Positions 13,353 through 42,950 of a stretch of 64,000 nt of DNA are shown here, one piece after another. The stretch covers positions 3,846,001 through 3,910,000 of the forward strand of contig OZ249436.1 in the NCBI GenBank assembly GCA_965235115.1. The letters are read 5' to 3'. The stretch comes from Laetmonice hystrix. Its lineage: Eukaryota. Within the stretch, counting starts at the first letter, position 1. Every line of letters begins with the position of its first letter. The position numbers and the translations under genes were made by a program. A model generated the notes under the pieces. The model made no database searches and was not told the DNA's origin. It saw only the letters and a list, made by a program, of their open reading frames with translations.

Positions 13353-16300
13353 ATGCGTCGTGAGATGTCACTGCAGACGATGCCACCCTCCCGCCATAGT
13401 TACACACTCCGCCACACTCAACCCCCACTGGCTCTGAACACTGCCACAGCCAGTTACCGTGCCGGTACTGTAGCGGGTCAGACAAGGAACAAGTCGGTGA
13501 ATGAGACCACCCTGTCTACCATCAGCACCGCCATGAATGACCACAATCCTCGACCTGACAGCCATAGCAGCACATCCCTTACAGAAGATGGTGCTACCAT
13601 CACGTACCATGACGTTGTCTACTCGGTCCATGTGCGGCACAAATGTTGTGCGTCTTTCCCGAAACATATTATTAAAGGACTTAGGTAAGCACTGAACCCT
13701 CGCAAAGCCTGGAACGTTGTTGGTAAAATATCTAGGCTATATTTAGAGGTCTGGGGGTCATCAACCTGCGGTTGGAGTAGGGCAACCAAGTCGGCGGGAG
13801 ATTCAATGCTCGCTCAGGCCGCGGGGCACTGCAATCGATTGGGCTGCACCAACGAGTTGATTAGGCCTATGCAAAGGTGTCTCTATAGAGCGCTGCCAGA
13901 GACGTATAGGCCCATTAGGCCTATTTGAACGGTGTGTGCAGGTCTGAACTGACAAATAGTTTAAACCATAGAGCAGACTCTATGTAAACCAACAAAGATC
14001 ATGCAGTGGCCAGTATCCAGAATTTTTTTTAAGGGGGGGGGGGGGGGGGTCCGAACTTTCAAGGTACTTCAGAGATGGCCATTAGGCCATGCTCCTCTGG
14101 GAAACTTTAAAAAAGACATCAAATAATGCAATCTCGGGACATATCTTGTGTGGAAATATGAAGATTTCCTTTGGTTAGAACAATGCAATTTACATTCCCT
14201 TTAAAGTTAAATTAAGTTAATAGGCCTATAGTAATTTTTTAAGGGGGGGGGGGGGTCGGGGATACTTAGAAACCCCTCTTGATACGCCACTGGTATTTGT
14301 CAGTTTAGATCCAGGCCTAAACTGACAAACATCAGGGCCGGATCCGGGGGGGGGGGGGGGGGGGGGGGGTTGCACCCCCCCTTAGAAATCCCCCCCCCCC
14401 CAAAAAAAAAGAAAAATAAAGGTGTCAATTGTCCGTCATACAGGAACGACAGTGTGAATCTAAAATCTATAAAGCCATACGTAGCTGATATAGGCCTATA
14501 TATTTCATAAAAATATAATAATTTCGGACTAGACCGCAACCCCCACTTGCCCCCCCCCTTGAAAAATCCTGGGTCCGACCCTGCATAATGATCACTATAA
14601 AAAAATCGCCTAATTTGAACTGATTCTCCATGACAGGAATGTAGCCTGCATTGCTTAGAAAAATATTGAGAGTGCATATATTTACTTCAATTTCAGATCA
14701 TATATATCGAAATTTCTTTTTGAAAAATCAATTAATCTACCTATATTTGAATTGATCAATATAAATTTATTAGTGCTACTTGTTCAGCCTAAACCTTCCA
14801 GGCCCGTAGCTATAGGCCCTTACCCTTGTAGGTATCATTCAATTGCAGTGTGATGCACATGTATCTACATGTGCATCATGATGTATACATTTGCAAACAT
14901 TATGTTTTTATGAATATATAAAGCCATTACTAACTAGGCTTACTATTCCCCACGCAGTGGACACTTCAAACCAGGGATGAATGCCATTATGGGAGCCACT
15001 GGAAGTGGAAAAACATCGTAAGTACATTCTTCATTTCTAAAGCAATCAGCGAGTATCTCTCATTTCAATGACTCCAAAATGTAGACAAAATCGTTGACTT
15101 GGCATTCATTGGTTCATCGTCCGATGATCGAGTTTCATTGGCTCTCCAAGTCAATGCCAGGTCAACAACCATCCATGAAACGTTCGCTTTATGGCGACAA
15201 CAGGAATGTGGAATTTCATTAGATTCCTCCATTTTTGTGGGAAACGTAAATTGACTTATGTAGTCTAAGGCCTTATGTAACCATGTCCATGTCTTCATTT
15301 TTGAGTCATTGAAATAAGAACTACTCGCTGATCGATTGCTTTAAACGTCTTTCCTTCAGGTCAAATTTTACTGATCCAACTGCTAAGATTGGCAGGGGTT
15401 TATATAAATATAATAACCTTAAAAACAAAAATTCCTGGTGTCAGTATTTTCCTAGTGTGGGAGGAAAATATAGCTACAAATAAAAGAATAATCTCATTGA
15501 ACCCATCTAACCCATGCCCCGTAACATGAATTTATTGTGTCGTCTCACCAGTGGTGGTGGTATCAGACACGTGTAAACCTACATGGCCTCCGACACAAAA
15601 CCACCATTACTCACTCACTCACCAACACGGCCACCGACACAAAACCACCATTACTCACTCACTCACCAACACGGCCTCCGACACAAAACCACCATTACTC
15701 ACTCACTCACCTACACGGCCTCCGACACAAAACCACCATTACTCACTCACCAACACGGCCTCCGACACAAAACCACCATTACTCACTCACTCACCTACAC
15801 GGCCTCCGACACAAAACCACCATTACTCACTCACTCACCAACACGGCCACCGACACAAAACCACCATTACTCACTCACTCACCAACACGGCCTCCGACAC
15901 AAAACCACCATTACTCACTCACTCACCTACACGGCCTCCGACACAAAACCACCATTACTCACTCACTCACCAACACGGCCTCCGACACAAAACCACCATT
16001 ACTCACTCACTCACCTACACGGCCTCCGACACAAAACCACCATTACTCACTCACCAACACGGCCACCGACACAAAACCACCATTACTCACTCACTCACCA
16101 ACACGGCCTCCGACACAAAACCACCATTACTCACTCACTCACCAACACGGCCTCCGACACAAAACCACCATTACTCACTCACTCACCTACACGGCCTCCG
16201 ACACAAAACCACCATTACTCACTCACTCACCAACACGGCCTCCGACACAAAACCACCATTACTCACTCACTCACCAACACGGCCTCCGACACAAAACCAC

Positions 16301-19300
16301 CATTACTCACTCACTCACCAACACGGCCTCCGACACAAAACCACCATTACTCACTCACTCACCTACACGGCCTCCGACACAAAACCACCATTACTCACTC
16401 ACCAACACGGCCTCCGACACAAAACCACCATTACTCACTCACTCACCAACACGGCCTCCGACACAAAACCACCATTACTCACTCACCAACACGGCCTCCG
16501 ACACAAAACCACCATTACTCACTCACTCACCTACACGGCCTCCGACACAAAACCACCATTACTCACTCACTCACCAACACGGCGTCCGACATAAAACCAC
16601 CATTACTCACTCACTCACCAACACGGCCTCCGACACAAAACCACCAATACTCACTCACTCACCTACACGGGCTCCGATACAAAACCACCATTACTCACTC
16701 ACTCACCTACACGGCCTCCGACACAAAACCACCATTACTCACTCACTCACCTACACGGCCTACTTGATGTTGGGACGGTCCTGCTAATAGTTCTAATCTA
16801 CCGTTTAATAGGTTGTTGGACATTATGGCCAAAAGAAAGAACCCAAATGGATTGGAGGGAACGATTCTAGTGGATGGGAATGAGCAACCGGAAAATTTTA
16901 AGTGTATGAGTGGCTATGTTGTGCAGGTAAGTCCTCAGAAACTTAGGTAATTGGGCTCATTGTAGGCCATATACTGGCTATAGATTGGTTGTAGGCCATA
17001 TACCTGGCTATAGATTGGTTGTAGGCCCTATACCTGGCTATAGATTGGTTGTAGGCCATATACTGGCTATAGATTGGTTGTAGGCCATATACCTGGCTAT
17101 AGATTGGTTGTAGGCCCTACACCTGGCTATAGATTGGTTGTAGGCCATATACCTGGCTATAGATTGGTTGTAGGCCATATACCTGGCTATAGATTGGTTG
17201 TAGGCCATATACCTGGCTATAGATTGGTTGTAGGCCCTATACCTGGCTATAGATTGGTTGTAGGCCCTATACCTGGCTATAGATTGGTTGTAGGCCATAT
17301 ACCTGGCTATAGATTGGTTGTAGGCCATATACCTGGCTATAGATTGGTTGTAGGCCCTATACCTGGCTATAGATTGGTTGTAGGCCCTATACCTGGCTAT
17401 AGATTGGTTGTAGGCCCTATACCTGGCTATAGATTGGTTGTAGGCCCTATACCTGGCTATAGATTGGTTGTAGGCCCTATACCTGGCTATAGATTGGTTG
17501 TAGGCCATATACCTGGCTATAGATTGGTTGTAGGCCCTATACCTGGCTATAGATTGGTTGTAGGCCCTATACCTGGCTATAGATTGGTTGTAAGCCATAT
17601 ACCTGGCTATAGATTGGTTGTAGGCCCTATACCTGGCTATAGATTGGTTGTAAGCCATATACCTGGCTATAGATTGGTTGTAAGCCATATACCTGGCTAT
17701 AGATTGGTTGTAGGCCCTATACCTGGCTATAGATTGGTTGTAAGCCATATACCTGGCTATAGATTGGTTGTAGGCCATATACCTGGCTATAGATTGGTTG
17801 TAGGCCATATACCTGGCTATAGATTGGTTGTAGGCCATATACCTGGCTATAGATTGGTTGTAGGCCCTATACCTGGCTATAGATTGGTTGTAGGCCATAT
17901 ACCTGGCTATAGATTGGTTGTAGGCCCTATACCTGGCTATAGATTGGTTGTAGGCCCTATACCTGGCTATAGATTGGTTGTAGGCCATATACCTGGCTAT
18001 AGATTGGTTGTAGGCCATATACCTGGCTATAGATTGGTTGTAGGCCATATACCTGGCTATAGATTGGTTGTAGGCCCTATACCTGGCTATAGATTGGTTG
18101 TAAGCCATATACCTGGCTATAGATTGGTTGTAGGCCCTATACCTGGCTATAGATTGGTTGTAGGCCCTATACCTGGCTATAGATTGGTTGTAGGCCATAT
18201 ACCTGGCTATAGATTGGTTGTAGGCCATATACCTGGCTATAGATTGGTTGTAGGCCCTATACCTGGCTATAGATTGGTTGTAGGCCCTATACCTGGCTAT
18301 AGATTGGTTGTAGGCCCTATACCTGGCTATAGATTGGTTGTAGGCCCTATACCTGGCTATAGATTGGTTGTAGGCCCTATACCTGGCATTGTATATTACT
18401 GTTGTTGTGCAATGACAGGAGGGGAGGGGGCAGTTATTGATATAATAAAAACCCCGGTGCGAAAAAAAACCGCCCCGAACTTTAAACTTCAATATTTCAA
18501 AAAGTAATGATTGTAATTCAATGAAAGGTGGTTTTTGAAATATTAAAGTTTAAAGTTCGGGGCGTTTTTTTTATCCACCCGATATATAACTGTTTTTAGA
18601 AAATGAAACATTGAAACAGGTAATTGAGTCGACTATTAATGATTAGAACCAAACACTGACTACTACGGACTACTAATAGACATATACTACTACCGGAAGT
18701 ACAAATATTATTTAACAACCATGACTTTCTTTCAGGACGATGTCGTGATGGGAACACTGACTGTAAAAGAGAACTTTTTGTTTTCCGCCAACCTAAGGTT
18801 GCCATCCTCTGTGGGAAGGCAGGAGAGAGAAAGATGTGTAGACGCAGTCATCAATGAGTTAGGATTGTCAGAGGTTGCTAACTCTAAGGTTTGTAATCAC
18901 GGACCAGATCACGTTTCTGGCGGGAAATATGTTTTTGGCAAAGTGTTGTTTGGAAAAATGTTTTTCCAGCGTCAGTGTTAAACGAGTGCAAGCAGTGAGA
19001 ATTTTAGTGAAACTCCAAAACCACATTGCAAACAAAAGCCGGCGACCGTTTTCGGCATATCGATGAGGTCGGGGCTAGATCATGGTAGGCCGTCTAGGTC
19101 TATCGGCCTATGTTGGGCTATACATGCACTACACTGGACCCGCCATTGATAATAGCCCACTCTTCAGAAAAGGTCTGCAATTTGAGTTAAATTAGGTCTA
19201 AATCTTGAAAGCTTTTAGAGGAGCCAGTATAGGTTTATGTTGCCAAGCTTCCATATTTGGTTAAGTTATGGGATATGCGTTACAAATCGAGAACTTCATT

Positions 19301-22300
19301 GGAGTAGTTGCAGTGGGAGAGTGGGATATGACAGTCCTATCTGAATGTAGACCTTCAAAGTTATCACCGATGAAGATCATATTAGAAATGACACATATCC
19401 TATCGATATAGACCTATAATCAATAAAAACCTGAAGATATTATTGTATAAATGACCAAGCATTCAATATTTAGAACGGTTGACTTTAGGTTGGGAACGAG
19501 TTTATCCGGGGGATATCGGGCGGAGAACGTAAACGGACAAACATTGGTATGGAGTTGATCACGACTCCTAGAGTATTATTCCTGGATGAACCCACGACGG
19601 GTCTGGACGCCAGCACAGCCAACGCCGTCATGCTCATGTTGAAAAGGTGACGCACTCATCGGTTAATCTCCCAGGGTAAATTACCACGCAGTAGGAGGGT
19701 ATAGGTTACTGTGGGGGTGTTTCACTAAGCGCCTCGGACCGTTCGACCGACGACGGACAGTCTGTCGCTTGGTTGCAATTTATTTTCAGGGCCTGCAATT
19801 TTTGGTCGGACGGTCGGACGCGCTTAGTGAAACACCCCCTGGATTATAACCCTTAAATGGTCCTCCCCTTACAGTAAAAGCGAATTAACACACAAAGTGA
19901 GAGTGTTGCATCGTGTGAGAGTTTCCTTGTTTCATGGCAAAGAACTGATCAACTGGCTGTACTATATTTGTACAGGATGGCCCGTAAAGGTCGTACGATC
20001 ATCTTCTCCATCCACCAGCCTCGGTACAGTATCTTCCGACTGTTTGATCACCTAACCCTGCTGTCTCAAGGACTCATGGTCTACCAGGGCCCAGCCCAAC
20101 AGGCACTCGATTACTTCTCTACCATTGGTAATTAACTATACAAATGTACCTTATCTAACCAGGGGTCTGCCTTACTTAGGGCTGGGGTGCGTTTCACAAC
20201 TATCGTTATGTTGAAAATACATTAACGATATGACAAGCTAACGACAGGTTGTGAAACGTACCCCTGAGTATTAACGATAGCCAGTAATAGTTAAATTTAC
20301 CTGGCCGTGAATGAGAGGCCTCTGGATATGGGTTCGTTATTAAACAGAGACTCTTATACAATCCTATTCGCTCCGCCCCAGGATCCGCCATTGCTCTTGA
20401 AAGATAACATTTGTCTAGAATCATCATCAATCTTTTAGTAAGCAAAAGGTAGAATACATACTCGTATATATGTGTGAGTGGATTCTGTTACAGGTTTTGA
20501 ATGTGAACCTCATAATAACCCAGCAGACTTCTTCTTAGATGTTATTAATGGTGACTCTACTGCTGTTAACATGGCAAAAACTGAAGCAAGTAAGTGAGTT
20601 TGTCTGGTGTTCGACTCGCTCTCTCTTGTGTGCCTAAAACACAACAGCTTGTAAAGAGATAATCTGTATGATTCATGGCTACTTTCTCTTTAGATATTTT
20701 TTATTTTCATGACACAATGTCATAAATTGGATTCATAACTAGCTCAGCTCAGCTCAGCTTAGCTCAGCTCAACTCAGCGGAATATGCGATTTTTTTTTCT
20801 TAATATACAAGAGAACCGTGAGAATAAAACACCTTGTGTTGACATCGCAGTGGATGACGATAATACAGAGACTGATATAGAAGTCGGCCGACCCCCCAGT
20901 CCCGAACTCGAGGATGAGCTGGCTGTGGATTTGAGCAACAAGTATAAGGCATCTCAATGGTATCGAGGGTAAGCCTATATAGTTTACATCTCAGTCTCCT
21001 TCAATTTCATTCTTGGATTATAATGTAAAATATGTTTATCTAATAAAGTTTTTAACAGGCCTATCTCTGGTAGGTAAGGTTTGGGTAAGGGTTAGGTTTG
21101 GGACATGGAGCATTGAATTTTAGATATTGTTGTGAATAGTTGTAATATCTTTGAGACTGGTGTTATTGTCAGCTACTAAAAATACTACGGAAGCCCATTA
21201 GAGCATTGAATTTGAGGTATTGTTGTGAGTGGTTGTAATATCTTTGAGAGTGGTGTTTATATTGATTTATCTTGGTGGTCCATGTACAGTGTATATCCAT
21301 CATGTCAGCTACCTCACAAACAATACTACGGAAGCCCATCAGAGCATTGAATTTTAGATATTGTTGTGAGTAGTTGTAATATCTTTGAAATGGTGTTATT
21401 GATGGTCCAGGATGATGGCTGAGGTGGAACCGGTCGTGCAGGTTTATGAACAGGCTGTTCGGGAGGGAAACCTTCAAATAGCCGCCATGGATGGAGGAGA
21501 TTACGCTGTCTCGTTTTTCATACAGGTATGTCCGTCATGTCAGCTACCTCATGGTGCGATACTAATAATATTATTTTACTACGGAAGACCATTAGTAACA
21601 TGCTAAGTAGTCAGTCGTTATTATGAGATCTCCTTATTTTTTTAATCAACGAACGTTATTAAGTCGTAATAACGATTTAATGACGTCACTAAGTCGTTAT
21701 TACGAGATCTTCAGAATATTTTTTTTCACAAGACGAACCTTATTAACTCGTATTAAAGACTTTGTGACGTAACTAATTTGTAATAACGAGTTAATGACGT
21801 CACTAAGTTGTTATTATAGAGATCTCCACATTTTTTTCCTAAATGTCCCCAACCGGCCTCCGTATGCAGTAACTCCAAGACAAACATAAAAATACGACTT
21901 AAGTTTTCGGTTCACCCTCAGACTGTAGCTTTATGAGAGGTCCTGGTATCCTTGGGCCGGATGTAGATAGGTTTATTACCGCACAGTTTCAATATTCAAT
22001 TGTTTGTGGTTGTTTTCAGCTGTTTGTTGTATCAAAACGAGCAGTCCTAAACATAGTACGAAACCCACAAACATCAATTATGCAGGTTGGTAACATAGTA
22101 CGAAACCCACAAACATCAATTATGCAGGTTGGTAACATAGTTCGTAACCCACAAACATCAATTATGCAGGTTGGTAACATAGTTCGTAACCCACAAACAT
22201 CAATTATGCAGGTTGGTAACATAGTTCGTAACCCACAAACATCAATTATGCAGGTTGGTAACATAGTTCGTAACCCACAAACATCAATTATGCAGGTTGG

Positions 22301-25300
22301 TAACATAGTTCGTAACCCACAAACATCAATTATGCAGGTTGGTAACATAGTTCGTAACCCACAAACATCAATTATGCAGGTTGGTAACATAGTTCGTAAC
22401 CCACAAACATCAATTATGCAGGTTGGTAACATAGTTCGTAACCCACAAACATCAATTATGCAGGTTGGTAACATAGTTCGTAACCCACAAACATCAATTA
22501 TGCAGGTTGGTAACATAGTTCGTAACCCACAAACATCAATTATGCAGGTTGGTAACATAGTTCGTAACCCACAAACATCAATTATGCAGGTTGGTATCCT
22601 GTTAAACCTACGTCTTCGAACAAAAAATTCCTGGAGAATTCTGGAGAATGTTGTTGATAAATAATCTTCCGACCTCGGTTGTCGGTGATATAACAAACAT
22701 CAAATTTAAATCTTGATTTGATTCGCTCCAAACACAAAGCCGTTAGTTCTCAGTTTATCCCTGTGACATACAATTAAATAGATCACTTGCCAGTCCCGGC
22801 ACCCGGCAGCTTACATTTAATCACTCGTACTTTCGTATAGCAGTTTTTAAACCTACCTCAGTCCTAGTTCAGATTTATTGACTGTTCATTATATGACATC
22901 TTCAGCTTGTGATTTCAGGTGTTTGTGATGGTAATCTTTGCTTTGTTGGTTGGAATCATTTACTTCCAAATGGAGTTGGACTTTGCGGGGCTACAGAACA
23001 GGTACCGTAATCTGTTAACTTACTCCGCATTTCACGGTCCGTTCAAGGTCATGTATTATAACTGTAGCACCTAAAGGTCATATATTATGAATGGTTTTAT
23101 AACTGTAGCAGGTGGTTTTATAACTGTAGCAGGTGGTTTTATAACTGTAGCAGGTGGTTTTACTAGTTTAGTAAATTTGGATACTGCTCACGGCGCTGAA
23201 GTCAAGAGTATTTTAAGATCTCCTCATAAGGAAGCATTTACCCAGACCTAATTAAAGTCCTTCGTGCAATGATTTCATCGCTTTTAACTTACAGGATCGG
23301 TGCCTTCTTCTTCATCGTCATGAATCAAGTGTTTGGAAATCTCTCAGCAGTTGAACTCTTCATCAAAGAAAGAAAGATTTTCATGTAAGTGATACTGTAA
23401 GGAGACCATTGGATGGGGACCAGCTGAGGCTCGGAGGGGGGGGGGGGGTAAGGAATGTCCCCGGACCGGTCTAGTATGAACATCTCATTGTAATGTCCTA
23501 GATTTACGGTGGGCTGACCGACTTTGACATGATATGTAATCAAGTCCTCTTCATGCAACTTATTTAAAGACAATTACGGTAATGACACAGTTTGGTAGTT
23601 CTACAGGCCTTGCATCTCTTTATACAGCCATGAGAACTCGAACGGATTTTATCGGGTATCAGCATACTTCCTGGCCAAACTCTTCTGTGACGTCATTCCC
23701 ATGAGAATCCTGCCGATCATGGTGTTTTCAGTCATAGTCTACTTCATGATAGGTGAGTCATTTAACCATTGCACTGTGTGTCAAGTCCTCTAGCTGTATA
23801 GCTAAAGCTATAACTGGTCATGGTGTTTTCAGTCATAGTTACTTCATGATAGGTGAGGCATTTAACCATTGCACTGTGTGTCAAGTCCTCTAGCTGTATA
23901 GCTAAAGCTATAACTGGTCATGGTGTTTTCAGTCATAGTTTACTTCATGATAGGTGAGACATTCATACACCAACTTAACCATTGCACTGTGTGTCAAGTA
24001 ATAGCTATAACTGGTCATGGTGTTTTCAGTCATAGTTACTTCTTGATAGGTGAGGCATTCATACACCAACTTAACCATTGCACTGTGTGTCAAGTCCTCT
24101 AGCTGTATAGCTAAAGCTATAACTGGTCATTGTGTTTTCAGTCATAGTTACTTCATGATAGGTGAGTCATTTAACCATTGCACTGTGTGTCAAGTCCTCT
24201 AGCTGTATAGCTATAGCTATAACGCCATGGGGCAATTAAAAATTTCGGCCAAAATCAACCCCTCTGCCCTCCTTAACCATAGAGTCCCCATACGCCCATC
24301 AGTGCCCCCTAGAAGGTTTGCCCATTGAGAACCACTTGAGTAACCCCCCCCCCCCCCTCTTATTTCTGAATCTGGCCTTGATATCAGAGCTGGCTGGTAT
24401 AATACTCTCCTTATTTGTGTGACTGTGTCCATAGGTCTGCAGATAGATGTTGGCAAGTTCTTCACGTTCCTACTCGTCCTCAGTTGTGTATCACTCTCAG
24501 CCTCTGCTCTTGGATTCTTCTTCTCGGCAACAGTTCGGGTGTTTGCCCTGGCCAACTTGTGCATCGCTCTCTGTTACGTCTTCATGATGGTGAGCAAATC
24601 AATCTATACGAGGACTTTTGGCTTAACCCTTAAAGCGTGAAGCGTGATCCATTAATTTGATGTGACTCTAACTACCTTATTTTAAGTGATTCGTGAATTA
24701 AACGTCAAAGATCGTAAATGATTGACAGTCAGGTGTTCGGGTGTTTGCCCTGGTCATTGCTTCCTCTTACGTCGTCATAGTAACGAAGTAAGAACTTGTC
24801 AAACGACATGATGGATTGAATGCTGCAAAGATTGACATTGATGATTGAATTGGCGGCCCCAGAGGATCCCAAGTTTTAAAAAACCTGTTTTGTTTCTCAG
24901 GTGTTTAGTGGACTTCTTGTTAACCTAAACTCGATGCTCAGCTGGCTCTCCTGGATCAAATGGTTCTCGATCTTTAGATATGGCATGAACGTAAGTGTTT
25001 ACCACACTGACATATTTATTGTGCTGTAGGCCTGCGGTTGTGTTTGATCACAGAATAAACGAGGAACTGTTTATCAAGCCCTCCGGCGAGAAAGAACATT
25101 ATAGGAGGTCTGATGTGGTACATTTTGATAATAATAAATTAGTTGTTTATTTGTTACCATTACTATCCTGTCAGAATGTGTTCCATGTACACTTTTCTTT
25201 TTTTCAGGCTCTTTATGTGAATGAATTAACAGAGCTTGTGTTCTGTGGATTTAAACCCAATGCAACAGGCATCCCAGTGTACAAGTGGTAAGTGGTGTGT

Positions 25301-26115
25301 TCAGTTTACAAGCGGTAAATGGTGTGTTCAGTTTACAAGTGGTAAGTGGTGTGTTCAGTTTACAAGCGGTAAATGGTGTGTTCAGTTTACAAGTGGTAAG
25401 TGGTGTGTTCAGTTTACAAGTGGTAAATGGTGTGTTCAATTTACAAGTGGTAAATGGTGTGTTCAGTTTACAAGTGGTAAGTGGTGTGTTCAGTTTACAA
25501 GTGGTAAGTGGTGTGTTCAGTTTACAAGTGGTAAGTGGTGTGTTCAGTTTACAAGTGGTATGGTGTGTTCAGTTGACAAGTGGTATGGTGTGTTCAGTTT
25601 ACAAGTGGTAAATGGTGTATTCAGTTTACAAGTGGTAAGTGGTGTGTTCAGTTTACAAGCGGTAAATGGTGTGTTCAGTTTACAAGCGGTAAGTGGTGTG
25701 TTCAGTTTACAAGTGGTAAGTGGTGTGTTCAGTTTACAAGTGGTATGGTGTGTTCAGTTTACAAGTGGTATGGTGTGTTCAGTTTACAAGTGGTAAATGG
25801 TGTGTTCAGTTTACAAGTGGTAAATGGTGTGTTCAGTTTACAAGTGGTAAGTGTTGTGTTCAGTTTACAAGTGGTATGGTGTGTTCAGTTTACAAGTGGT
25901 ATCCTGTGAACGGTAGCCGACTCCCAGCTGTTGTTTGTAATATTCTGAACCGTTCCTTTGACAGTGAGAAAGGCACAACATACTTGGACGAGCAGAAGAT
26001 ACCATACGGGGAACCGTTTGATCTTTGGTCAAATATTGTTGCTCTTATCTCCATGACGGTAGTCCTCCTCACCCTCACCTACATTCAACTACGGAGGGTT
26101 AACAAGTACTCGTGA
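13353..26115 (+). CDS. ABCG2: ABC transporter subfamily G member 2-like half transporter
   Basis: Exons (start ATG uncertain: 13353/13365/13380)-13684, 14958-15017 (Walker [10 protein letters not shown]), 16812-16926, 18736-18888, 19489-19646 ([19 protein letters not shown]), 19976-20127 (SIHQPR), 20494-20589 (NPADF), 20812-20968, 21411-21525, 22020-22085, 22919-23001, 23295-23384, 23628-23752, 24435-24589, 24901-24990, 25208-25287, 25965-26115. All phases are consistent; NBD precedes TMD. Confidence 0.93.
15577..16762 (+). repeat. 44/40-bp C/A-rich minisatellite, ~27 copies, ABCG2 intron
   Basis: Unit ACACGGCCTCCGACACAAAACCACCATTACTCACTCACTCACCA; ends ~50 nt before the acceptor at 16811. 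Confidence 0.95.
16960..18388 (+). repeat. 30-bp minisatellite, ~47 copies, ABCG2 intron
   Basis: Unit AGATTGGTTGTAGGCC(A/C)TATACCTGGCTAT with three interspersed variants. Confidence 0.97.
18451..18582. mobile_element. Small palindromic MITE-like element
   Basis: AAAAAAACCGCCCCGAACTTTAAACTTCAATATTTCAAAAA ... TTTTTGAAATATTAAAGTTTAAAGTTCGGGGCGTTTTTTT inverted arms. Confidence 0.65.
19713..19841. mobile_element. Palindromic MITE-like element
   Basis: GGGGGTGTTTCACTAAGCGC ... GCGCTTAGTGAAACACCCCC termini; a similar smaller element lies at ~20182-20266 (GGGGTGCGTTTCACAAC ... GTTGTGAAACGTACCCC). Confidence 0.7.
22049..22596 (+). repeat. 42-bp array, 13 copies of ABCG2 exon end plus donor, in-frame ([14 protein letters not shown])n
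   Basis: Unit AACATAGTTCGTAACCCACAAACATCAATTATGCAG|GTTGGT; donors every 42 nt from 22085 to 22589. Confidence 0.97.
23717..24220 (+). repeat. ~100-bp array, 5 copies of ABCG2 exon end plus GTGAG donor
   Basis: TCATGGTGTTTTCAGTCATAGT(C)TACTTCATGATAG|GTGAG at 23752 (real), 23852, 23953, 24049, 24161. Confidence 0.92.
25275..25901 (+). repeat. 27/25-bp array, ~23 copies, seeded on ABCG2 donor
   Basis: Unit TACAAGTG|GTAAGTGGTGTGTTCAGTT beginning at the real donor 25287/25288. Confidence 0.95.
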
Positions 26116-32838: not shown

Positions 32839-35160
32839 AGGCATAATATAAGGTAACATTCTTTACGGCAATGTTAAGAAATACCGGCATTGCTCAGGTG
32901 AAGTTCTATGAAGGCTTTCTTTTTTAGACCAACGGAACACGCGATGCTGTATTACTCATTTTATAAGCGAAACAGTTCAGATTGAAGGATGATGTTTTTA
33001 TTGCCGACAAAGGTCGGGCATTTTATTCGACGTCTACAGCATCATCCGTCACGTGGTATGGCGTACGACTCGAAATAAACATGGTTCAAACAGGCGTTCA
33101 AACTGAAAGAACGACGCAGGTCGTAACAAACGTCGACAACATAGCAGTGGATATATGCCTGACGGCGTCATTATTGACGTGACAGTTTGTACCACACGTC
33201 GGTAGCGCCGTCCGACCTCACGTCAAACCCCACGTTATAAGTTTTAACGTGGGGTTCGACGGTGACGGTGTCGGTGACGGTGACGGTGACGGTGACGTGG
33301 GAATGGATACCCGGCTTTATATCTGTTCAAATCTTTTCTAACTTGCTTAAAATTTCACGGCCTGTGTGCTTGGCCTGTACAAACTGGTGCCAGCCTTTTC
33401 TTTTAACTAAGTCTACATGTCATGCTGATTGCTGTAAGTTTCAACATTAAAAAAGATAGATAATAAAACGTGAAGCATGCAAACTTTTATTCATGCTTTC
33501 CGAAACACGCTTTTGAAATCAAACAATAACATGCAGTTCCTCAGCTGGTTTAATAGAAAAGAAGTCAGTTCAGCGGCCAGTCGTGCGTTCCATTTCATAT
33601 CGTCGGCGTCGCCTTGCGCACAATCCTTTTACTAAACGTCAATGGACAGAGCATCACTTTTTCTGACAATAAAGTATGCAGAATGCCTGTTTTTTTGTGT
33701 GGGAGTTCAGGTATGAGTATTAACCGTGTATTCCACCAAATTTCCAGCGGCCTCCTTATCTCTGAGATTCAAGTTAATCTCCTAAAAGAAGTATTTTACA
33801 TATTTTCGGAATTAATACCATGTTCCTCTGAAATGATATATCATACTATCGGACAATGCAACATTTCTATCAAAATTTGAATCAGTCGATTTGCATGACA
33901 GAATGGCACGCCCACGGTTAATAAGGACTTGTGCTCACTGGACCTCTTCCTCTGGATAGTTGTTTCCTGCTCTTTCCCGCTGGACCTTTGCCCCCCGAAA
34001 CTTTGACCCATGAGGCCGTTGGCTGCTTAGACCGTTGCCCCAACATGTTTGGTCCCTGAAGTTTCTGACCTTATTATTCATAAACAGAATTTCCTGCAGT
34101 TCACCAATTTCCACTGAGCTTGCGGCCGTGCGATTTTCCTTGCGATGCGGCAGTCGCCCAGCCTAAAAGGCTCTCTGACTGCCGCATCGCAAGGGAAATC
34201 GCACGGTCGCAAGCTCAGTGGACAAGGCGGCTCTTTTACATTCACCACTACAAGGACAAGAGTGACACGTCGGGCCTTTGATGATCTAGTTGGAGAATTG
34301 AGAGGAGGAGGCTGCACCGGCAGCGGGAAGCCAACCCTTTACCCCACTCGGCCACCCACCCCTTCTAGTTGACCGTGCTTGTAGCCATGTACGGTGGTCC
34401 ATAAGGGGCATGCATGTGTTATTTGTTATTTCTAAGGAAATACTTTCATCAACACTTGGGCTCTTTTAACCGAAGTGGAAATATTCCTTCCGTTTTTCTG
34501 TCTTTCCAATTGTTATCACTAGCTCGTTCTCCTCTATCCGCCATAAAAGAAAGCGAAATCGTTGATATTTAGAAGTGAAAACCCGAAAAACCTATAGTGA
34601 TTTCTTTGGAAACACACACATGTATGTCCCTTAAGGGCCATAGCCATGAGACATTGTTTGAAACAAAACTCGCTTGCATGTCACACACTGTGAACAAAGG
34701 GTTCCCCTTCTTTTCCATGGTTCTAGCCTGTACGTATTTAACATAATTAGATACTGGATTGAATTAAGATTGCTAAATAGTGGGTACAGTATTTTTTTTA
34801 AAAACAGGACTCTAGCAACAGGTATAATAGGCGTGAATCCAACCCCGAGGACTTTGCTCGAGGACAAACCTTAAACATCACAAGACGGCAGCTTAGAGCA
34901 GAGGAAGTTGAAATCCGAAATCTTGGGAGTACCTTTTCGCATCCTAATGGCTGCCTTTAGTAATCAGTCTACGCCAATACTTGAAGAATTGGATAAATTC
35001 ACTGCGTTTTATTTCCTTGCGCGAAATGGCTCATCAAATTTCTAATCACCAGAAGCCTTTGAAATTGTGCATCTCGCCGTGCGCGTCTTCCAAGGATTTC
35101 TGGCGATAGGGGCCTCTTAATTTTTCTGTCTGGATCAAAATTTGTATGACTGAACAAGTT

Positions 35161-35353
35161 CTTATACCGTTGACACACCGACGCTATAATGCGCTTTAAA
35201 TCACTTTAAATCGTATTGATACGGCTCGTGACACACCCAACACGGTTCCCAATGCGCATTGAATCGCATTGAACCCAAATCACATCCATATGTGGATTCA
35301 ATGCGCATCGAAGCGCATTAAAAAAACCGTTTTTGGTGTGTCAACGGTATAAG
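35161..35353. mobile_element. MITE inserted in GPCR pseudogene
   Basis: Perfect 19-bp inverted termini CTTATACCGTTGACACACC / GGTGTGTCAACGGTATAAG. Confidence 0.8.
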
Positions 35354-35749
35354 TCTGGCGACCTCTGGACTGAATGTATCGCCTACAAACTTCATGTATC
35401 GCCTACAAACTTCATGTATCGCCTACAAACTGCATGTATCGCCTACAAACTGCATGTATCGCTTACAAACAAGCACAGGCAATTCAAAGTGGACATGTGA
35501 GTGGGTTGTTTTAGTTTTTATTTTCTGATTCAGAAAAGAAATACGTAGGGTTGAAATTAGAACCCTCTATGCACCCGTAACCTGTATTTACGTAAGCCAT
35601 GAGGGTGTTGTCGTTTGTCGCATAACAAAACCATCGAGTGCAAGAACGATCTGAAACGTAAAATGCAAGAGCTCAATGAAAAGTAAGCTGTCTTTTTCGA
35701 CTTGTGCTAGGACATTTGAGAATATCTGCTGTACAATTTTTTTCCTTTG

Positions 35750-35893
35750 CCGGAGTGTCGGCTGCTCAAAGCCTTTACCTTTGCTGGAGTGTCGGCTGCT
35801 CAAAGCCTTTACCTTTGCTGGAGTGTCGGCTGCTCAAAGCTTTTACCTTTGCTGGAGTGTCGACTGTTCAAAGCCTTTACCTTTGCTGGAGTG
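35750..35893 (+). repeat. 35-bp tandem repeat, ~4 copies
   Basis: GCTGGAGTGTCGGCTGCTCAAAGCCTTTACCTTT repeated. Confidence 0.85.
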
Positions 35894-38107
35894 TGGTGAT
35901 GTTACTGCTTTATTGAGACTTTAATCCGGTACTGGACTATTAGGTTTACCGGTATATAAATAGTTTTTTTTAAGTTTATTGTTATGGTCAGCATTATAAG
36001 GATCTTCCTGCAATTAAGACGCTTCACTGTCTTCAGACGACAGTCGATCAGCAACCCTGCCGGGAACGTAAGATCACCAAAATGATGGCAATCGTTCTCG
36101 GGGCACACTCCGTTTGCTACGCGCCCCAAATGTTGGTAAGTTTTTCGTTTAAACGTCCGTTTCCAGTCCACATTTATGTAATAGAAAGAGTAAGTTAGTT
36201 TCACGTATAAACCTTACACGTTAATTTACCATGCACTTAGTTACGAAAACCATTGTCTTTAACACCTTGAACAAGACCAGTAGGCTATAATGGTATATTG
36301 GTGCTCTTCGCAACCAATAATACGTTCTCTCTTCCCGTCAAATAAGCTGGGTTCTATCCCTCATTATAAAAGATCAAATGAAAGGAATTACACTGCGTTC
36401 CCGCTCTTGTCAACCTGGTTGTGGTAGGTCTTGGATCAACCCTTTCATCTATGCCTGGAAGAGCGCTGACTTCAGGAAGGCCATGAAGGAACTTCTTGGC
36501 ATGAAGAGATGTCGACTACTGTTACGAGATCGGAGGCGGGAATCCGTCACGACCACGACTTGCACCCAGTGAAACGTCAGCTCGACCTACGCGGTTCAGG
36601 GCCCGGTTCACAAACAAAGTCAGGTCAATTTTAATTGACTTGAAGTCCATTTTACTTGAATCTGATTGGTTAAAATGGATTTCAAGTTAATTAAAATTGA
36701 CTTGACTTTCTTTGTGAACTGGGCCTTGGAGAAGCTGGGGGGGGGGGGGGGCTTTGGGGGCTTAATCCCCCCCCCAGCTGACTCCAGGCTTATCATTTTG
36801 CAGTGTGTCTACCACGCACCTAAGAGGTTATTATACATACAACAAGCCCCCCCCCCCCATTGCAAAATCCTGGATCCGCCCCTGGTTGTCTATACTAAGA
36901 CACGTGACGGGCGAAGATATGGTACATTTTAAACAAACAGGCACTTGCACTGGGTTCCGCACGTTGGTGTCCACAGGAGGGCCAAGAGGCCGCCTGTGTC
37001 ACGGGAAATCATATTCGCCCAATTTGTCACTAGCTTACTATGTATGTTGAGCCGCAGAACAGGCAACCCGATAACGGAATATGCTAAGTGAGATGTCAAG
37101 TTTACACCAGTGGACTTAGCGAATAATGTATTTTGTATTCTGATAGACCCTGATTGGCAGAGAATTGTCTTGGCTAATACAAGATGATTCAGAGATAAAC
37201 TGTAACATTTTGTTGTATTAATTTAAATTGAAGGTAAATATATACAGAGGTCAGAAATGTTCAACTAAAATTCTATCACCAGAGTTCTACAATGGTATTC
37301 ACAATTGAGTAGACAACGAAAGTGTTTTACCTGACCACAAGCTATCATCAGAACAGCAGCTCTAACGCACTCCTTCCAGTTTCAAACACGTATCCACTTG
37401 TAGTGCTCTATTATAATGTCTAAAAGAAATCGCGAATAATGAAATTTTACCAAAATCTTTATAAGACTAGTTTTGTGTGGAGGGAGGAAATAATTTATTT
37501 ATATTAATCTTTGTTTACCCCCCCCCCCCTTAAGAGAAAGAAAACATTACCCAGGATCGCTCTCCTAGGGGTAACCAAGCCTTTCCCGCGTTGGAATTTC
37601 GAATTTGTAGATCATCAAGCAATACCATGCAGAAGTCTACTCATTTCATCGCTGTGTGCTGAGTGTTCTGCAGAAGACTGATAAATAAGGTGGACTATGA
37701 CTACAATAAGGAAATACATTTCCAAATAGGGGCGTACATGATAGCTATCGTGTACATACATTAATGGTAAGTGGTCTTTTAAAAGAGAGGGATGGCCTCA
37801 ATACGTTTCCGTAGTTTTCAGCGTGATCGCGTGTCGTTTCTGCTAACCAATAGAAATGCAAACGGAAAAGGTCGACCATGAAGCATGAGCGGACCGTTCT
37901 ATTCAGTCACTGGAATAAATTAAATCGAGCAACAGCAGGGGGCATGCATGAATATAAGGATGCCCGTAATATTATAATGGTGTTTGGCAGATCTGCCAAG
38001 CATCGTTCTGGAGTCCTGCAATATCGGAAGCCAGAAGCTAAGACAGAGGCAATCGGGATCAAAAGACTAGCAAAAATCTTGGAGTGAAAGCCAGGACATT
38101 TCCAATC

Positions 38108-41100
38108 ATGGCTGCCTTTTATAATCAGACCACACCATTATATGAAGACTTGGACAACTCCACTGATTTTGATTTCCTTGCGGGGAACGTCACACTTAAA
38201 TTCAGATTATCAGGACCATTTGAAATTGTCCATCTCATCGTGCGCGTCCTCCAGGGATTCCTGGCGATAGGAGGGAACGGCCTCACGATTGCCGCTATAT
38301 TGAAATTTGAATACCTTCGAACAGCAACAAATTACCTTCTTTGTAATCTTGCAGTTACGGACCTTCTTGCAGGAATTTCCCCTTTGCTCCTGGTTATTCA
38401 TGAAGTTGTGCCTCTTAATTTCTCAACTTGGATCAAAATTTGTATTTCCAAAGAAGTTCTTAGTCTCGGGACCTCTTGCATGAACGTCCTTTCAATAGTG
38501 CTTATCTCTATTGACCGTCTGATCTTCATCCAGTTTCCGCTTCGGTATAACAGTATCACCAAGGGTTCGTACGCCATTGGTGTAGTGGTTTTCACATGGG
38601 TAGCACTTGTTGCGCAAATAGCCGCCGTAGCTTCACTGGGTCCAGACCTACATCCTGGGATAAGCTGCCGTTCACAAGACATCTTTAGGAGCCTCTTGTA
38701 TACCATCCTGATCACCGGCGGATTTCTGGTGTACAGTATCATCATATTTATTATCTACCTGAGGATTGCATGCATTGCCTACAGACAGGCACGTGCAATT
38801 GAAAGTGGACATGTAAGTAGTTTCCTTTAATTTTGATTTCTAGGATTCAGAAATGAAATCCAATCTTGTATATCAAAAACATCTATGTATCTATACTGTT
38901 TAATAATGAAGGTAATTACGGGTGAGCTAGGCCTGCCCCTCACGTTATGTACGGGTGAGCTGGGCCTGCCCCTCACGTTATTTACGAGTGAGCTGGGCCT
39001 GCCCCTCGCGTTATTTACGGGTGAGCTAGGCCTGCCCCTCGCGTTATTTACGGGGTGAGCTTTATTTTAAGCACATTCCTCATATAATATTGAGGTATAC
39101 CATATCCCCGAGAACTCTAGATGGTTCCAGTCATTGTCTGAATCTTCTTTTTGTTCGATTCCTTCATTCCGGTAGTTGAGCGGTTAGAAGTGCAAGCTAA
39201 ATGTGTGAAGTATAATCCCGTAGCATTTGTGTGCTGAAATTTACTCTTTTTTTTTCTTTATCGGGTTGATTTGGGATGCCATTATTGGAAAATGATGGGG
39301 TTCAAACTTTCCCGTCCTATGGGTATGTCCGTCCCAGGACCGTTCAGGATATCCCTGTGCCTATCTTCGTCTTTTAGAGGGGTTCTTTGACGTCATTTAT
39401 GACACTTTCAAAGCGACCGGACTTCCGGTTATGATTGAAGTCGATGTCAAGGTTATTATCAAACCCAATAAACTTACTCAAGGGGCGAGAGCAGTTCGGC
39501 CCCGAATTTGATTGTAATGCCCTAAATATCAGTGACAAACTATGAAAATTGTAGAAAATTGTAGTCAAGTAAAGAGTGTTCCAGACACAGCGGAACCAAC
39601 TCTGCCGAGAACGCCTGGTCCGGCCTTGCAATTTTTGACACGAATTTTTAAAAATGGCCCTATTTGTAGACGATTTGGCCTATTTATCTGAAATTTGTAC
39701 CAACGACCCCAAATAACCAGATGATATCATGTTCTAAATATGACATTGGGGTAAAAATTATAGAAGATACAGTCAAGAGAAGAGTGTTCCAAAATGTTTT
39801 GGCCCACCCGATATTTACTTGAGAGAGTAAAAAGGCAAGCAGCAACCGAAAGAGTGAATCGTTTTTTACATTGCAGTATGCAGTAAAACATGTTTTTTAC
39901 ATCTATCGTATTTATTTTTTTTACATTTAACGGAGGGTAGTGTTTACATATGGGGTAGATTTGTTACATATGACGACGTTTATACGTTTAGCGGAATTTT
40001 TACATTTGAATGTACTACCTATGCCTCGTGGATAGTGCAAAGGAGTAATGTTGAAGCAACGTCGATGCCATGTCAAATGCGGCAAATGATGAGCTCTAAT
40101 GCTAAGAGAGCACCGCTGGGTCTTGGGGGTCTTGGAACGGGCAGGACCCCCACCCCCCCACCCCCCCCAAAAAAAAGAAGAAGAAGAAGAAGAAAAATCA
40201 ATCTTAGGACACAAATCCTACGGGAGTTATTTTCAGGACACTTCATACCCCACTATAACGCCGTCTATACATTGTTGAAGGTTAAAGAATGCGTCCTTCT
40301 TCCAAAGGACTGCTTCTGGTTCTGAAGGACTATTTGAAAGGCTATAAAACCTCCAGGATAAAAAAAATACGTTTCCTTTCAGATGACAGTCGATCAGCAA
40401 CCCTACCGCCGCGGACGGAAGATCACCAAGATGATGGCCATCATTCTCGGGGCATACTTTGCTTGCTACGCGCCCCAAATATTGATAATTATGTTTTTTA
40501 AACGTCCGCATCCATTCCCCATCTATGTAGCAGAAAGGGTAAGATACACTCTAAAACAGTGTTTGTAACAGAAAGGGTAAGATACACTCTAAAACAGTCT
40601 TTAGCAATTAAACACGTATAACACACGTCAGGCTCTAAACATGTGTTACTTTGTGATTAAACCCTCCTCACAATCTTCCCAAAACGTGTTTAACTTTATA
40701 CGTGTTTAGCATTAAAACATGAGGCTTGATCAGAACAAATATGCTAAACACATGCTAAACACATCGGTTCACAAGGTAACCTAAACATATTTAGCATGAG
40801 TCATGTTGAAAAATCGGGGACAAGGAACGTGTTTAGCTTTATGTTTAGGATCTAAACACGTTTTTTACAGTGTAGTCTTACGTAGAAACCTTACACGTTA
40901 ATTTACCACATTACATTTTTACTTATACTGGGTTATGACTCAACCGATTGTACACACATTTTGATGATTTAAATTAATAAAGAATCTCACTATCTCTTCA
41001 GTGTCCCCTGATGCAAAGAGTCCACTGACTCTATATGCATCAACTGGATTCAACTTTTATCTAAGTAAACCCTTATATATCACATTAAATGCTGATTTTT

Positions 41101-41314
41101 ACTGAAAATGATCACAATTTTTCCGTCTTTTTAGGTGGCAAGCTGGATTTGGTGGGTTAACTCTTGGATCAACCCATTCATCTATGTCTGGAAGAGCGCT
41201 GACTTCAGGAAGGCCATGAAGGAACTTCTTGGCATGAAGAGCTCAGCGGTGTCTGACTTGGCGACTACTGGTACAAGGCCAGAAGCTCTCACATTAAATA
41301 ATGGCAACGTCTGA
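38108..41314 (+). CDS. Rhodopsin-family (class A) GPCR, 346 aa, ligand unknown
   Basis: Phase-0 exons 38108-38812, 40383-40538, 41135-41314. Motifs: TM1 GN, TM2 NLAVTD, TM3 SIDRL, TM4 W, TM6 CYAP, TM7 NSWINPFIY, helix 8 FRKAM; N-terminal N-glycosylation sequons. Confidence 0.93.
38917..39061 (+). repeat. 33-bp tandem repeat, 4-5 copies
   Basis: TTACGGGTGAGCTAGGCCTGCCCCTCGCGTTAT repeated. Confidence 0.85.
40585..40872. mobile_element. TA-flanked MITE at start of GPCR intron 2
   Basis: TA|CACTCTAAAACAG ... AAACACGTTTTTTACAGTG|TA; the paralogous pseudogene intron shows the empty site (36190-36230). Confidence 0.75.
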
Positions 41315-42554
41315 TCTTCACGACCGCCACCTGAACCCCTCGATCCCCACAGTCCACACGAGGGGCGCCGCCAAAACACAGCCACGACCTACAGCTACTA
41401 CTTACTCTATAGGAGCGCCATATGTATCGCAACATGTGCCCGACCATCAGCACCAAATTTATAGCATGATTGATAAGTTTGTTGTTAGGTTAAGGAGCCA
41501 CACTTTTGGATTTTTTTGTCGCTCGTTTAGGAGTTGCGGTAATGATCTGTAGTATTACAATGATTATCCCATCCCCCGATCTTGAAATTGTGTGGTTTCG
41601 TCTTCTGTATTATTATTATCCCATCCCCACACTGGCTGAGCCCGTCTTAACTACAGGATGATAAGCTCACACAAACCTTTGAATATTTACAAGGTGGGGA
41701 CGTCAAACACTCTACTTTAACAGATTATAAAGTTCAATTAGCAACATATATAATTAACAACACAGAGACCAATTATTTAGGAGAAGGACGTGAAGACAGG
41801 CGGTGAATTTGACCATTCGACCCCCACCATCTGGTTACCGATCTGGAACATTTAGTGCTCAAAGTCCACCTCACATTTGCTCCAAAAGTATTCATCTTAT
41901 ATCATTGATAAATACCATACGTGATGCCTAATCTGTCCTCTTTTAGAAAATATAAAATTCACTTTTGGGAAAGCTATATTTATTATGAAAACACCGATTT
42001 ATGAAGAAAAGTTTTAAGTAGGAGAGACGCGTGGTGGCTGCAAGTTATTATATCACTCGAGCGGGTGCGTGGAAGGGAGAGGGGGTCCTGGACAGAGGAT
42101 AATATTAATAAGGGTGTGCTATGAGGGGGCTATCATTTGATATTTTATCCCTGTAATCTGTCGTAGGGTTGGCATAGCATGTATTTTCTTGTGGTATACC
42201 ATCTATTGTATTGCAGTGTATTGTATGTATCTCTCAGCTTTGACCGCTATGTAGTACTGAACAAGCGCATATAACATGCCCGCCATCAGGTCAGTCAGTC
42301 AAAGGAGCCGGTCAGCGGGCCACCGGCCAATAACCAGTGTCCATCCTTTAGACTGGGACAGGGACAACCCAGTAAACGAGGGGATATATATAGGAGCACC
42401 AAGAGAGAGAGACTTGGGGAGAAGGAGGAGAGAAAGGACAGAGATATATAGATTTGACGATGAGGGACACTGACCGCGTGGCATATTGGTCGAAGATAAC
42501 CGTGTGCCTCAGCAATTAAAGCTTCAAACCTCAAACGACGACTCTACTGAGTTA

Positions 42555-42950
42555 TTCTCCCCACTATCATAGAGAAATGTTAACAAAGGTTTCTCCCAAC
42601 TATCATAGAGAAATGTTAACAAAGGTTTCTCCCCACTATCATAGAGAAATGTTAACAAAGGTTTCTCCCAACTATCATAGAGAAATGTTAACAAAGGTTT
42701 CTCCCAACTATCATAGAGAAATGTTAACAAAGGTTTCTCCCAACTATCATAGAGAAATGTTAACAAAGGTTTCTCCCCACTATCATAGAGAAATGTTAAC
42801 AAAGGTTTCTCCCAACTATCATAGAGAAATGTTAACAAAGGTTTCTCCCAACTATCATAGAGAAATGTTAACAAAGGTTTCTCCCAACTATCATAGAGAA
42901 ATGTTAACAAAGGTTTCTCCCAACTATCATAGAGAAATGTTAACAAAGGT
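42555..42950 (+). repeat. 36-bp minisatellite, 11 copies
   Basis: Unit TTCTCCCAACTATCATAGAGAAATGTTAACAAAGGT. Confidence 0.95.

Follow-up and report, generated by a model that had tools for sequence, protein, structure and literature searches.

Thirteen in-frame splice donors in a minisatellite spanning an exon-intron boundary of a predicted ABCG2-like transporter gene in Laetmonice hystrix

Introduction

Tandem repeats that take in a splice donor have been described in human and lancelet genes, and the accounts given here are drawn from parts of the cited reports. In intron 7 of the human F7 gene, the first unit of a 37-bp VNTR spans the exon-intron boundary, so that the same donor is repeated along the intron (Borensztajn et al. 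2006, PMC1557585). In mammalian cells the most upstream donor alone was used, even where later ones give no premature stop, and each later donor was active only if the earlier ones had been mutated. The same study notes that older experiments with duplicated donors had given opposite results (PMC1557585).

In lancelets, boundary tandem duplications known as 'mirages' were found in the Adh3 gene and in the globin genes BflGb6 and BflGb9, on either the donor or the acceptor side, with units of 10-160 nt and variable length (Ebner et al. 2010, PMC3087553). Normal splicing is undisturbed by them, and they have been suggested as one way in which introns are gained (PMC3087553). In intron 18 of human ABCA7, the donor in the second unit of a 25-bp VNTR is detectably used, and the length of the VNTR has an effect on skipping of the exon that follows (De Roeck et al. 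2018, PMC5954066). In the tandem-duplication model of intron gain, an exonic AGGT is duplicated and the new intron restores the coding sequence (reviewed in PMC3443670).

Here, an array of 13 units across a splice donor is described from a 64,000-nt stretch of the L. hystrix genome (GenBank assembly GCA_965235115.1, contig OZ249436.1; positions 3,846,001 to 3,910,000), referred to below as the window.

Results

Host gene

The gene containing the array (Table 1) was modelled as an open spliced frame with GT-AG junctions and no stop or frameshift. Walker A, signature, Walker B/D-loop and H-loop motifs were found at residues 123-285, ahead of the membrane part, and Pfam matches above the cut-off were obtained for PF19055 at 20013-20129 (exon 6) and for PF01061 at 23620-23799 (exon 13). 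In a search with PF00005, the ABCG locus was not among the 18 candidates scored of 382. The predicted nucleotide-binding domain precedes the predicted ABC2-type membrane domain, the order that characterises an ABCG half transporter.

The protein predicted from donor 1 is in exact register with residues 373-477 of human ABCG2, as a single constant offset brings 10 of 15 named human residues (F373 to D477) into agreement and the next-best offset accounts for 4 of 15. From the Pfam hits and the published residue numbers the gene appears to be ABCG2-like, several of the 10 matched residues being common to other ABCGs. Its exon lengths are presumably similar to those of human ABCG2.

Table 1. Features of the ABCG locus, with positions numbered from the first base of the window
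Feature	Positions	Strand	Details
ABCG-family half transporter gene, predicted ABCG2-like	13353..26115	+	17 coding exons modelled, 725 aa; true first exon may be further upstream
Exon 10	22020..22085	+	66 nt, phase 0/0; predicted elbow (connecting) helix and first residues towards TM1, by register with human ABCG2 residue numbers (PMC5653816)
Minisatellite	22050..22595	+	13 x 42 nt; unit is the last 36 nt of exon 10 plus the first 6 nt of the intron; single genomic site
Copies 1-2 (A-type)	22050..22133	+	match the true exon end exactly
Copies 3-13 (T-type)	22134..22595	+	11 identical units with 2 synonymous differences; T-type unit in DNA contigs of 3/3 runs
Donor 1	22083..22091	+	putative authentic donor; mid strength, rank 18/30 from weakest
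Donor 13	22587..22597	+	original downstream intron retained; one more match to the U1-complementary consensus (9/11 vs 8/11)
Unique intron remainder	22596..22918	+	ends in the exon 11 acceptor
Exon 11	22919..23001	+	83 nt; predicted TM1 hydrophobic core; hydropathy peak in the stretch from residue 465

Anatomy of the array

The array proposed in the initial annotation is real, but it begins one base later than the 22049 given there. Its first unit contains the real donor at 22085 and so spans the exon-intron boundary, and CAG/GTTGGT donors follow 22085, 22127 and so on to 22589 with a spacing of 42 nt in all 12 intervals. The 9-mer is the same at all 13 donors, the 12 extra copies being identical to donor 1 from -3 to +6. 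The length of the intron ranges from 833 nt when counted from donor 1 to 329 nt from donor 13.

Translation in the frame set by the exon that starts at 22020 meets no stop in the array and gives a repeated 14-aa unit, with all 13 donors in frame. The arithmetic of the initial annotation, in which each donor preserves the frame, was therefore borne out, as was its observation that copies 1-2 and 3-13 differ only synonymously. The A-type and T-type units differ at the third position of two codons, GTA>GTT (Val) and CGA>CGT (Arg), and no frame-breaking or non-synonymous variant was present in the 12 extra copies. When the 627-Mb genome was searched with the 42-nt unit at up to 3 mismatches, 13 matches were found, all inside the array. 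The unit is locally derived and private to the ABCG locus.

Other donor arrays

Arrays spanning a donor were found at six of the 30 annotated donors in the window, where 0.65 would be expected, and at one of 29 acceptors. This excess is the more curious point, though the numbers are small. The other five donor arrays run into stops or frameshifts on read-through, so the ABCG array had rightly been set apart as stop-free. However, a unit that is a multiple of three, the other distinction drawn, is unremarkable, as three of the five have periods of 27, 51 and 42 nt and differ from the ABCG array only by a stop at or just past the donor. As the frames of these five genes could be preserved only via the first donor, it is likely that donor arrays are tolerated here.

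Further loci were taken from around Pfam matches (6 ABC2, 30 kinase and 30 myosin, some overlapping and many of the kinase ends not being splice junctions). Among these 66, one more clear donor array was found on a different contig, in a myosin gene (locus L055), together with one decayed donor array and one array reaching an acceptor. The share of sequence in tandem arrays is 32% in the window and 8% in the 66 loci.

Chance expectation and synonymous differences

A unit with 36 exonic and 6 intronic nt would be stop-free at 21 of the 30 donors in the window. The probability of an open in-frame unit was 0.138 on average over the 30 donors and 0.33 at the ABCG exon 10 donor, and that of one or more of 6-7 arrays having such a unit was 0.59-0.65, indicating that the open frame of the ABCG array is expected by chance.

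That two of two changes are synonymous has a probability of 0.057 when taken alone. However, three stop-carrying arrays also show synonymous majority differences between exon and copies (in 21/21, 59/64 and 31/37 copies), and because a stop follows at once in these arrays, the ABCG pattern can be accounted for without any translation of the copies. This control was mixed: the 51-nt array has a non-synonymous difference at one of its edge positions, and all five majority differences of the myosin array are non-synonymous. In the six other arrays, 21 of 24 minor variants are non-synonymous, unlike the ABCG array, which has no such variant. The absence of non-synonymous and frame-breaking variants is explained by youth, and constraint would explain it too. 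Neither the open frame nor the synonymous pattern goes beyond chance, and the hints of downstream donor use do not hold.

Donor strength, RNA folding and DNA reads

Donor 1 is not weak, to judge from its rank among the donors of the window (Table 1), and masking of the later donors by RNA structure is unsupported, as the region 21990-22300 folds no more stably than shuffled versions (z -0.80; 20 of 100 shuffles as stable).

DNA reads were available from three runs, all from one sample, which may be the source of the assembly itself. In contigs aligned over 21430-22133, both unit types were present in 3/3 runs, which makes an assembly artefact unlikely. The majority unit was found at 6.6-9.0 times the flank depth compared with 11 copies assembled, a comparison confined to a single sample and to contig depth, which is no measure of copy number. 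A T-type allele of the exon was not seen, as the contigs of this sample contained no alternative letters at the two variant positions within copy 1.

Discussion

Donor 1 as the probable main splice donor

It is likely that the ABCG array is a neutral, locally born donor-spanning minisatellite, or 'mirage', with the main splicing from donor 1. For the history of the array and the choice of donor we infer the following. The array would have arisen when 42 nt around the exon 10 donor were duplicated and then amplified to 13 copies by ordinary minisatellite turnover, probably in the setting of a repeat-rich region close to the end of a chromosome. The other 12 donors, further downstream, are probably competent and would normally be outcompeted by the most upstream one, and the main mRNA would join 22085 to 22919 and encode a normal transporter. 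Use of the authentic site is indirectly supported by the intact gene and by the residue register with human ABCG2, and F7 and the lancelet mirages behave in this way (PMC1557585, PMC3087553). The open frame may be incidental, since coding sequence makes up 6/7 of the unit and the GTTGGT donor is stop-free in phase 0. The synonymous differences may be due to purifying selection on the real exon copy, through a later change there or an allele swap, rather than to the copies being translated. Splicing perhaps leaks to donor 2 at a minor level, adding 14 aa; this is plausible, and the product would escape nonsense-mediated decay.

Several observations count against dominance of donor 1. The same 9-mer is present at all 13 donors, and donor 13 has an extra U1-type match and the original intron. 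The second donor is used in ABCA7 (PMC5954066), the older experiments with duplicated donors gave opposite results, and the F7 rule comes from mammalian cells (PMC1557585). The lack of non-synonymous and frame-breaking variants, for which constraint is an alternative to youth, and the mixed synonymous control also count here.

Alternative readings

Alternatively, the identical donors could compete, so that the transporter would carry, between the elbow helix and TM1, from 0 to 12 additional 14-aa units, with copy number tuning the share of normal protein. The frame is open for 13/13 donors, no premature stop would clear such mRNAs, both variant sites are synonymous, none of the 12 copies is frame-breaking, and the second donor of ABCA7 is in use (PMC5954066). 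However, the open frame is expected by chance, the stop-carrying arrays share the synonymous differences, and in-frame pseudo-sites in F7 are unused according to the consulted part of that report (PMC1557585). Judged from the Pfam hits and the published residue numbers, extra units would also extend the hinge between the elbow helix and TM1. The site neighbours the equivalents of R383 and N387, two residues that matter in human ABCG2 for folding and coupling (PMC5653816). The initial annotation had predicted an intact protein from any donor, and this applies to the reading frame only, as the insert would fall at the hinge. Such competition is considered unlikely.

It is likewise unlikely that the downstream donors are used measurably and in a copy-number-dependent manner, the minisatellite then acting as a heritable dial on a working ABCG2-like pump in 14-aa steps at the hinge. 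No description of a donor ladder in 14-aa steps at such an array was found in the parts of the articles consulted, and none appears in the consulted parts of PMC10078293 and PMC13196383.

Use of the last or a late donor, favoured by nearness to the next acceptor, would lead mostly to a transporter with a long insert that is probably defective. Donor 13 has 9/11 U1-type matches compared with 8/11 as well as the original intron context, and earlier duplication experiments favoured either copy, as noted in the consulted part of the F7 study (PMC1557585). However, this reading is very unlikely, as the gene is intact over its 17 exons and free of stops and frameshifts, exon 10 would be enlarged from 66 nt to 570 nt, and such a rule would wreck the five other array-bearing genes in the window.

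It is also highly improbable that the internal AG/GT sites serve as acceptors, whether for 42-nt micro-exons, for recursive splicing or for a nascent intron. CAG/GT is present in every unit, the T-type units carry GTAAC ~23 nt upstream of the AG, which weakly resembles a branch point (identified by eye), and intron gain via mirage repeats has been proposed (PMC3087553). However, the AG of the unit is a poor acceptor, with a score of -0.5 that is lower than those of 26 of the 27 real acceptors in the window and equalled or exceeded by 72% of 326 intronic decoy YAGs, and with 4 T in -20..-4 compared with 5-12 before real acceptors. Re-splicing would yield an unchanged mRNA, and a retained unit would add 14 aa. 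The suggestion that a later AG could be an acceptor, making the array the classical substrate for intron gain, was therefore not upheld; the piece duplicated is an existing donor, whereas the classical model requires duplication of an exonic AGGT that restores the coding sequence (PMC3443670).

That the array is an assembly artefact of collapsed or inflated reads is extremely unlikely because, although the majority-unit depth is below that of 11 assembled T-type copies and no aligned contig bridges the whole array, A-type and T-type units both occur in the contigs of all three runs at several times the flank depth, and the shortfall, in a measure that gives no copy number, is compatible with a shorter second allele.

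Significance

If splicing does proceed mainly from donor 1, the locus is one further mirage, of little consequence. The array nevertheless offers a test, provided by nature, of competition among donors whose outcome nonsense-mediated decay would not mask, as all 13 products would survive, whereas in out-of-frame arrays the use of later donors is masked by that process. Reads can also be assigned to copies 1-2 or to copies 3-13 by two synonymous marks. With surviving products that can be told apart in this way, the locus could show whether the 'first donor wins' rule of F7, established in mammalian cells, holds in an invertebrate.

Comparison with known systems

The ABCG array is of a known kind, that of the lancelet mirages and the human F7 and ABCA7 VNTRs, which are compared here from the consulted parts of the reports cited above. 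As in F7, identical donors are lined up behind the authentic one. However, most later donors of the 37-nt F7 unit shift the frame whereas all those of the ABCG array keep it, and F7 was tested in mammalian cells whereas donor use at the ABCG array is a prediction from sequence. The lancelet mirages are likewise minisatellite-like copies of an exon-intron boundary in an invertebrate, but a stop-free in-frame donor ladder is not described in the consulted part of that report (PMC3087553).

A segment containing AG/GT is present in tandem copies, as in tandem-duplication intron gain. However, no exonic AGGT is duplicated here; the array copies an existing donor inside an existing intron that has its own acceptor at 22918, and its AG is without a pyrimidine tract. 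Human VNTRs that alter splicing are reportedly the subject of Mukamel et al. 2023 and are a possible closer precedent. ABCA7, like the ABCG locus, is an ABC transporter gene with a VNTR that includes a donor, but the ABCA7 unit begins at the GT with no exonic share and its second donor is out of frame, whereas the unit described here includes 36 nt of exon and keeps the frame at every donor.

The donor array in the ABCG gene

The ABCG gene was modelled as 17 exons (13353-26115) with GT-AG junctions and an open frame of 725 aa, and Walker A, signature, Walker B/D-loop and H-loop motifs were found N-terminal to the membrane part of the predicted protein. Pfam matches above the curated cut-offs were obtained for exon 6 (PF19055) and exon 13 (PF01061). 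When the protein made using the first donor of the array was compared with the human ABCG2 residues named in PMC5653816 (F373-D477), 10 of 15 matched at a constant offset of 70, whereas the next best offset gave 4 matches. These motifs, Pfam matches and residue register suggest that the gene belongs to the ABCG family and is ABCG2-like. As matching residues lie on both flanks of the exon junction, the first donor yields the conserved spacing without an insertion.

The last 36 nt of exon 10 and the first 6 nt of the intron form the unit of an array of 13 exact 42-nt copies (22050-22595), with CAG|GTTGGT donors spaced 42 nt apart, the first two after 22085 and 22127 and the last after 22589. No stop codon was found in the frame of the exon starting at 22020, confirming the 13 in-frame donors reported in the initial annotation, and copies 1-2 (A-type) indeed differ from copies 3-13 (T-type) at two third positions, both synonymous. 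The unit corresponds to human ABCG2 residues 387-398, where the elbow helix ends and the connection to TM1 follows, and exon 11 encodes the hydrophobic core of TM1. The elbow helix of human ABCG2 (F373-G390) is described in PMC5653816 as a hinge required for folding and coupling; extra units are predicted to damage the protein. The array is probably a neutral minisatellite spanning the donor, with the first donor predicted to dominate and perhaps a minor leak adding 14 aa.

Donor arrays in the window and genome

Tandem arrays (period at least 10) made up 32% of the window, compared with 8% of 66 loci around Pfam matches elsewhere. The first unit of an array spanned 6 of the 30 window donors annotated by eye, namely those of ABCG exons 10, 13 and 16 and of three exons of a minus-strand channel gene that its motifs suggest to be TRP-like. 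Random placement of the 25 arrays would give 0.65 donor arrays (Poisson P 6e-5), and within the two genes 3 were seen against 0.60 expected and 3 against 0.39. Acceptors, also annotated by eye, were spanned in 1 of 29 cases (0.63 expected). This contrast between donors and acceptors would be expected if the most upstream site always won, as donor arrays would then be harmless and acceptor arrays harmful, but such a rule does not explain the above-chance frequency of donor arrays.

Among the 66 loci, 14 copies of a 34-nt unit form a donor array at a myosin exon on another contig (L055:1649-2122 on contig C12), another ABC2-family gene has an array that resembles a donor array but is decayed (L011, oriented 1696-1907), and a 61-nt array with acceptor look-alikes reaches the acceptor of a myosin exon (L072, oriented 680-1500). 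Together with the 6 of 30 window donors, these arrays suggest that donor arrays are a habit of the Laetmonice hystrix genome.

Other arrays and repeated features of the window
Feature	Position	Strand	Unit x copies	Remarks
Acceptor-spanning array	681-1454		55 nt x 14	Last copy at 1434; 14 tandem acceptor look-alikes
Diverged copies up to acceptor of ABCG exon 9 (by eye)	21110-21410		60-130 nt x 3	Possibly an old acceptor-side duplication
Short element in ABCG intron upstream of exon 10	21650-21850			Very high-copy interspersed repeat; summed contig depth 20,000-200,000
Two further ABCG donor arrays	23717-24223; 25275-25901	+	~100 nt x 5; 27 nt x 23	Both lead to stops on read-through
Array of ABCG final codons and stop codon	26063-26713		61 nt x 10.7	Repeated into the 3' UTR
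Tandem pair of related class A GPCR-like genes	34900-36570; 38090-41315			First apparently broken (by eye)
Array with units ending AAG|GT	42555-42950		36 nt x 11	Good donor (GTGAAT) after last copy; one frame without stops; candidate second donor ladder (first or untranslated exon)
Coding minisatellite	47307-47476		15 nt x 11	In frame, inside the large exon of a presumed class C GPCR-like gene (by its motifs)
Donor arrays at three exons of TRP-like gene	52089-63620 (gene)	minus	51 nt x 65; 22 nt x ~33; 42 nt x 38	All lead to stops on read-through

Predicted donor use

As the five other donor arrays, with their stops or frameshifts, lie in apparently intact genes, the first donor is predicted to win in the genes of the window. 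In strength the exon 10 donor lies in the middle of the range (18th of 30, counted from the weakest), its 9-mer is identical in all 13 copies, and RNA folding of the array region gave nothing beyond shuffles.

Use of several of the 13 donors is unlikely, although detectable use of the donor in the second VNTR unit of human ABCA7, reported in PMC5954066, speaks for it. No published case of a used, stop-free donor ladder was found in a literature search, most subscription papers lying outside its reach. The unit had been set apart from the other arrays as a stop-free multiple of three; its freedom from stops is distinctive, but periods divisible by three occur in three of the five others (27, 51 and 42 nt), each of which hits a stop at or just past the donor, while the remaining two shift the frame. 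The mean probability of an in-frame, stop-free unit was 0.138 over all unit geometries at the 30 donors. At the exon 10 donor it reached the maximum possible, 0.33, since no stop comes early in the intron, and 21 of the 30 donors give an open unit with the 36+6 geometry. With 6 or 7 arrays, the probability that one or more is open is 0.59 or 0.65, and selection is therefore unnecessary to explain the open frame.

Of the 126 single changes 30 are synonymous, so that two random ones would both be silent with P 0.057; the two observed may be a single event. The synonymous pattern does not require translation of the copies, as three untranslatable arrays likewise depart from the true exon by a synonymous change in most copies (21/21, 59/64 and 31/37). 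Contrary cases are the 51-nt array, with one non-synonymous position at its edge, and the myosin array, in which 5/5 majority differences are non-synonymous (2 at the unit edge); among the minor variants of six control arrays, 21 were non-synonymous and 3 synonymous. Most simply, the real exon or an alternative allele of it was free to depart from the array at silent sites only; a T-type copy 1 was not among the variants listed for the DNA contigs of this one sample. The 12 extra ABCG copies carried no minor variants, which fits youth or homogenisation, and constraint could also be the cause.

Copy 13 has one extra U1-type match, but it is very improbable that this late donor wins. It is just as improbable that the internal AGs serve as acceptors, as the initial annotation had proposed. 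With a matrix built on 27 window acceptors (leave-one-out scores for real sites), the AG of the unit scored -0.5, lower than 26 of 27 real acceptors and equalled or exceeded by 72% of 326 intronic decoy YAGs, and it has 4 T in positions -20 to -4 compared with 5-12 in real acceptors. A presumed branch-point look-alike ~23 nt upstream of the AG in T-type copies, recognised by eye, weakly favours such use, as does the proposal in PMC3087553 that lancelet mirages, minisatellites spanning boundaries, are a route of intron gain.

An assembly artefact can practically be dismissed, as both unit types were present in contigs from 3/3 runs of one sample, the majority type at 6.6-9.0x flank depth, where the runs are possibly the source of the assembly itself and contig depth does not equal copy number. 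In the genome (627 Mb, 35 contigs), the unit matched at up to 3 mismatches at 13 sites, all within the array. Other matches on the same contig extend beyond 67 Mb, placing the window near one end of it.

Comparison with known systems

The array belongs to the known class of donor-spanning minisatellites, and the locus has a modest use as a place where competition between donors could be tested without masking by nonsense-mediated decay. It does not represent the classical substrate for intron gain that had been suggested, since in that model, as outlined in PMC3443670, an exonic AGGT is duplicated and the new intron restores the coding sequence, whereas here an existing donor has been copied into an existing intron. 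Lancelet mirages are described in PMC3087553 as leaving normal splicing undisturbed. Human F7 offers the best precedent: its exon 7 donor is repeated by a 37-bp VNTR, as that of exon 10 is by the present array. According to PMC1557585, the most upstream F7 site alone is used, 50 further clones gave no other product and later in-frame sites were idle, which also speaks against use of several donors here.
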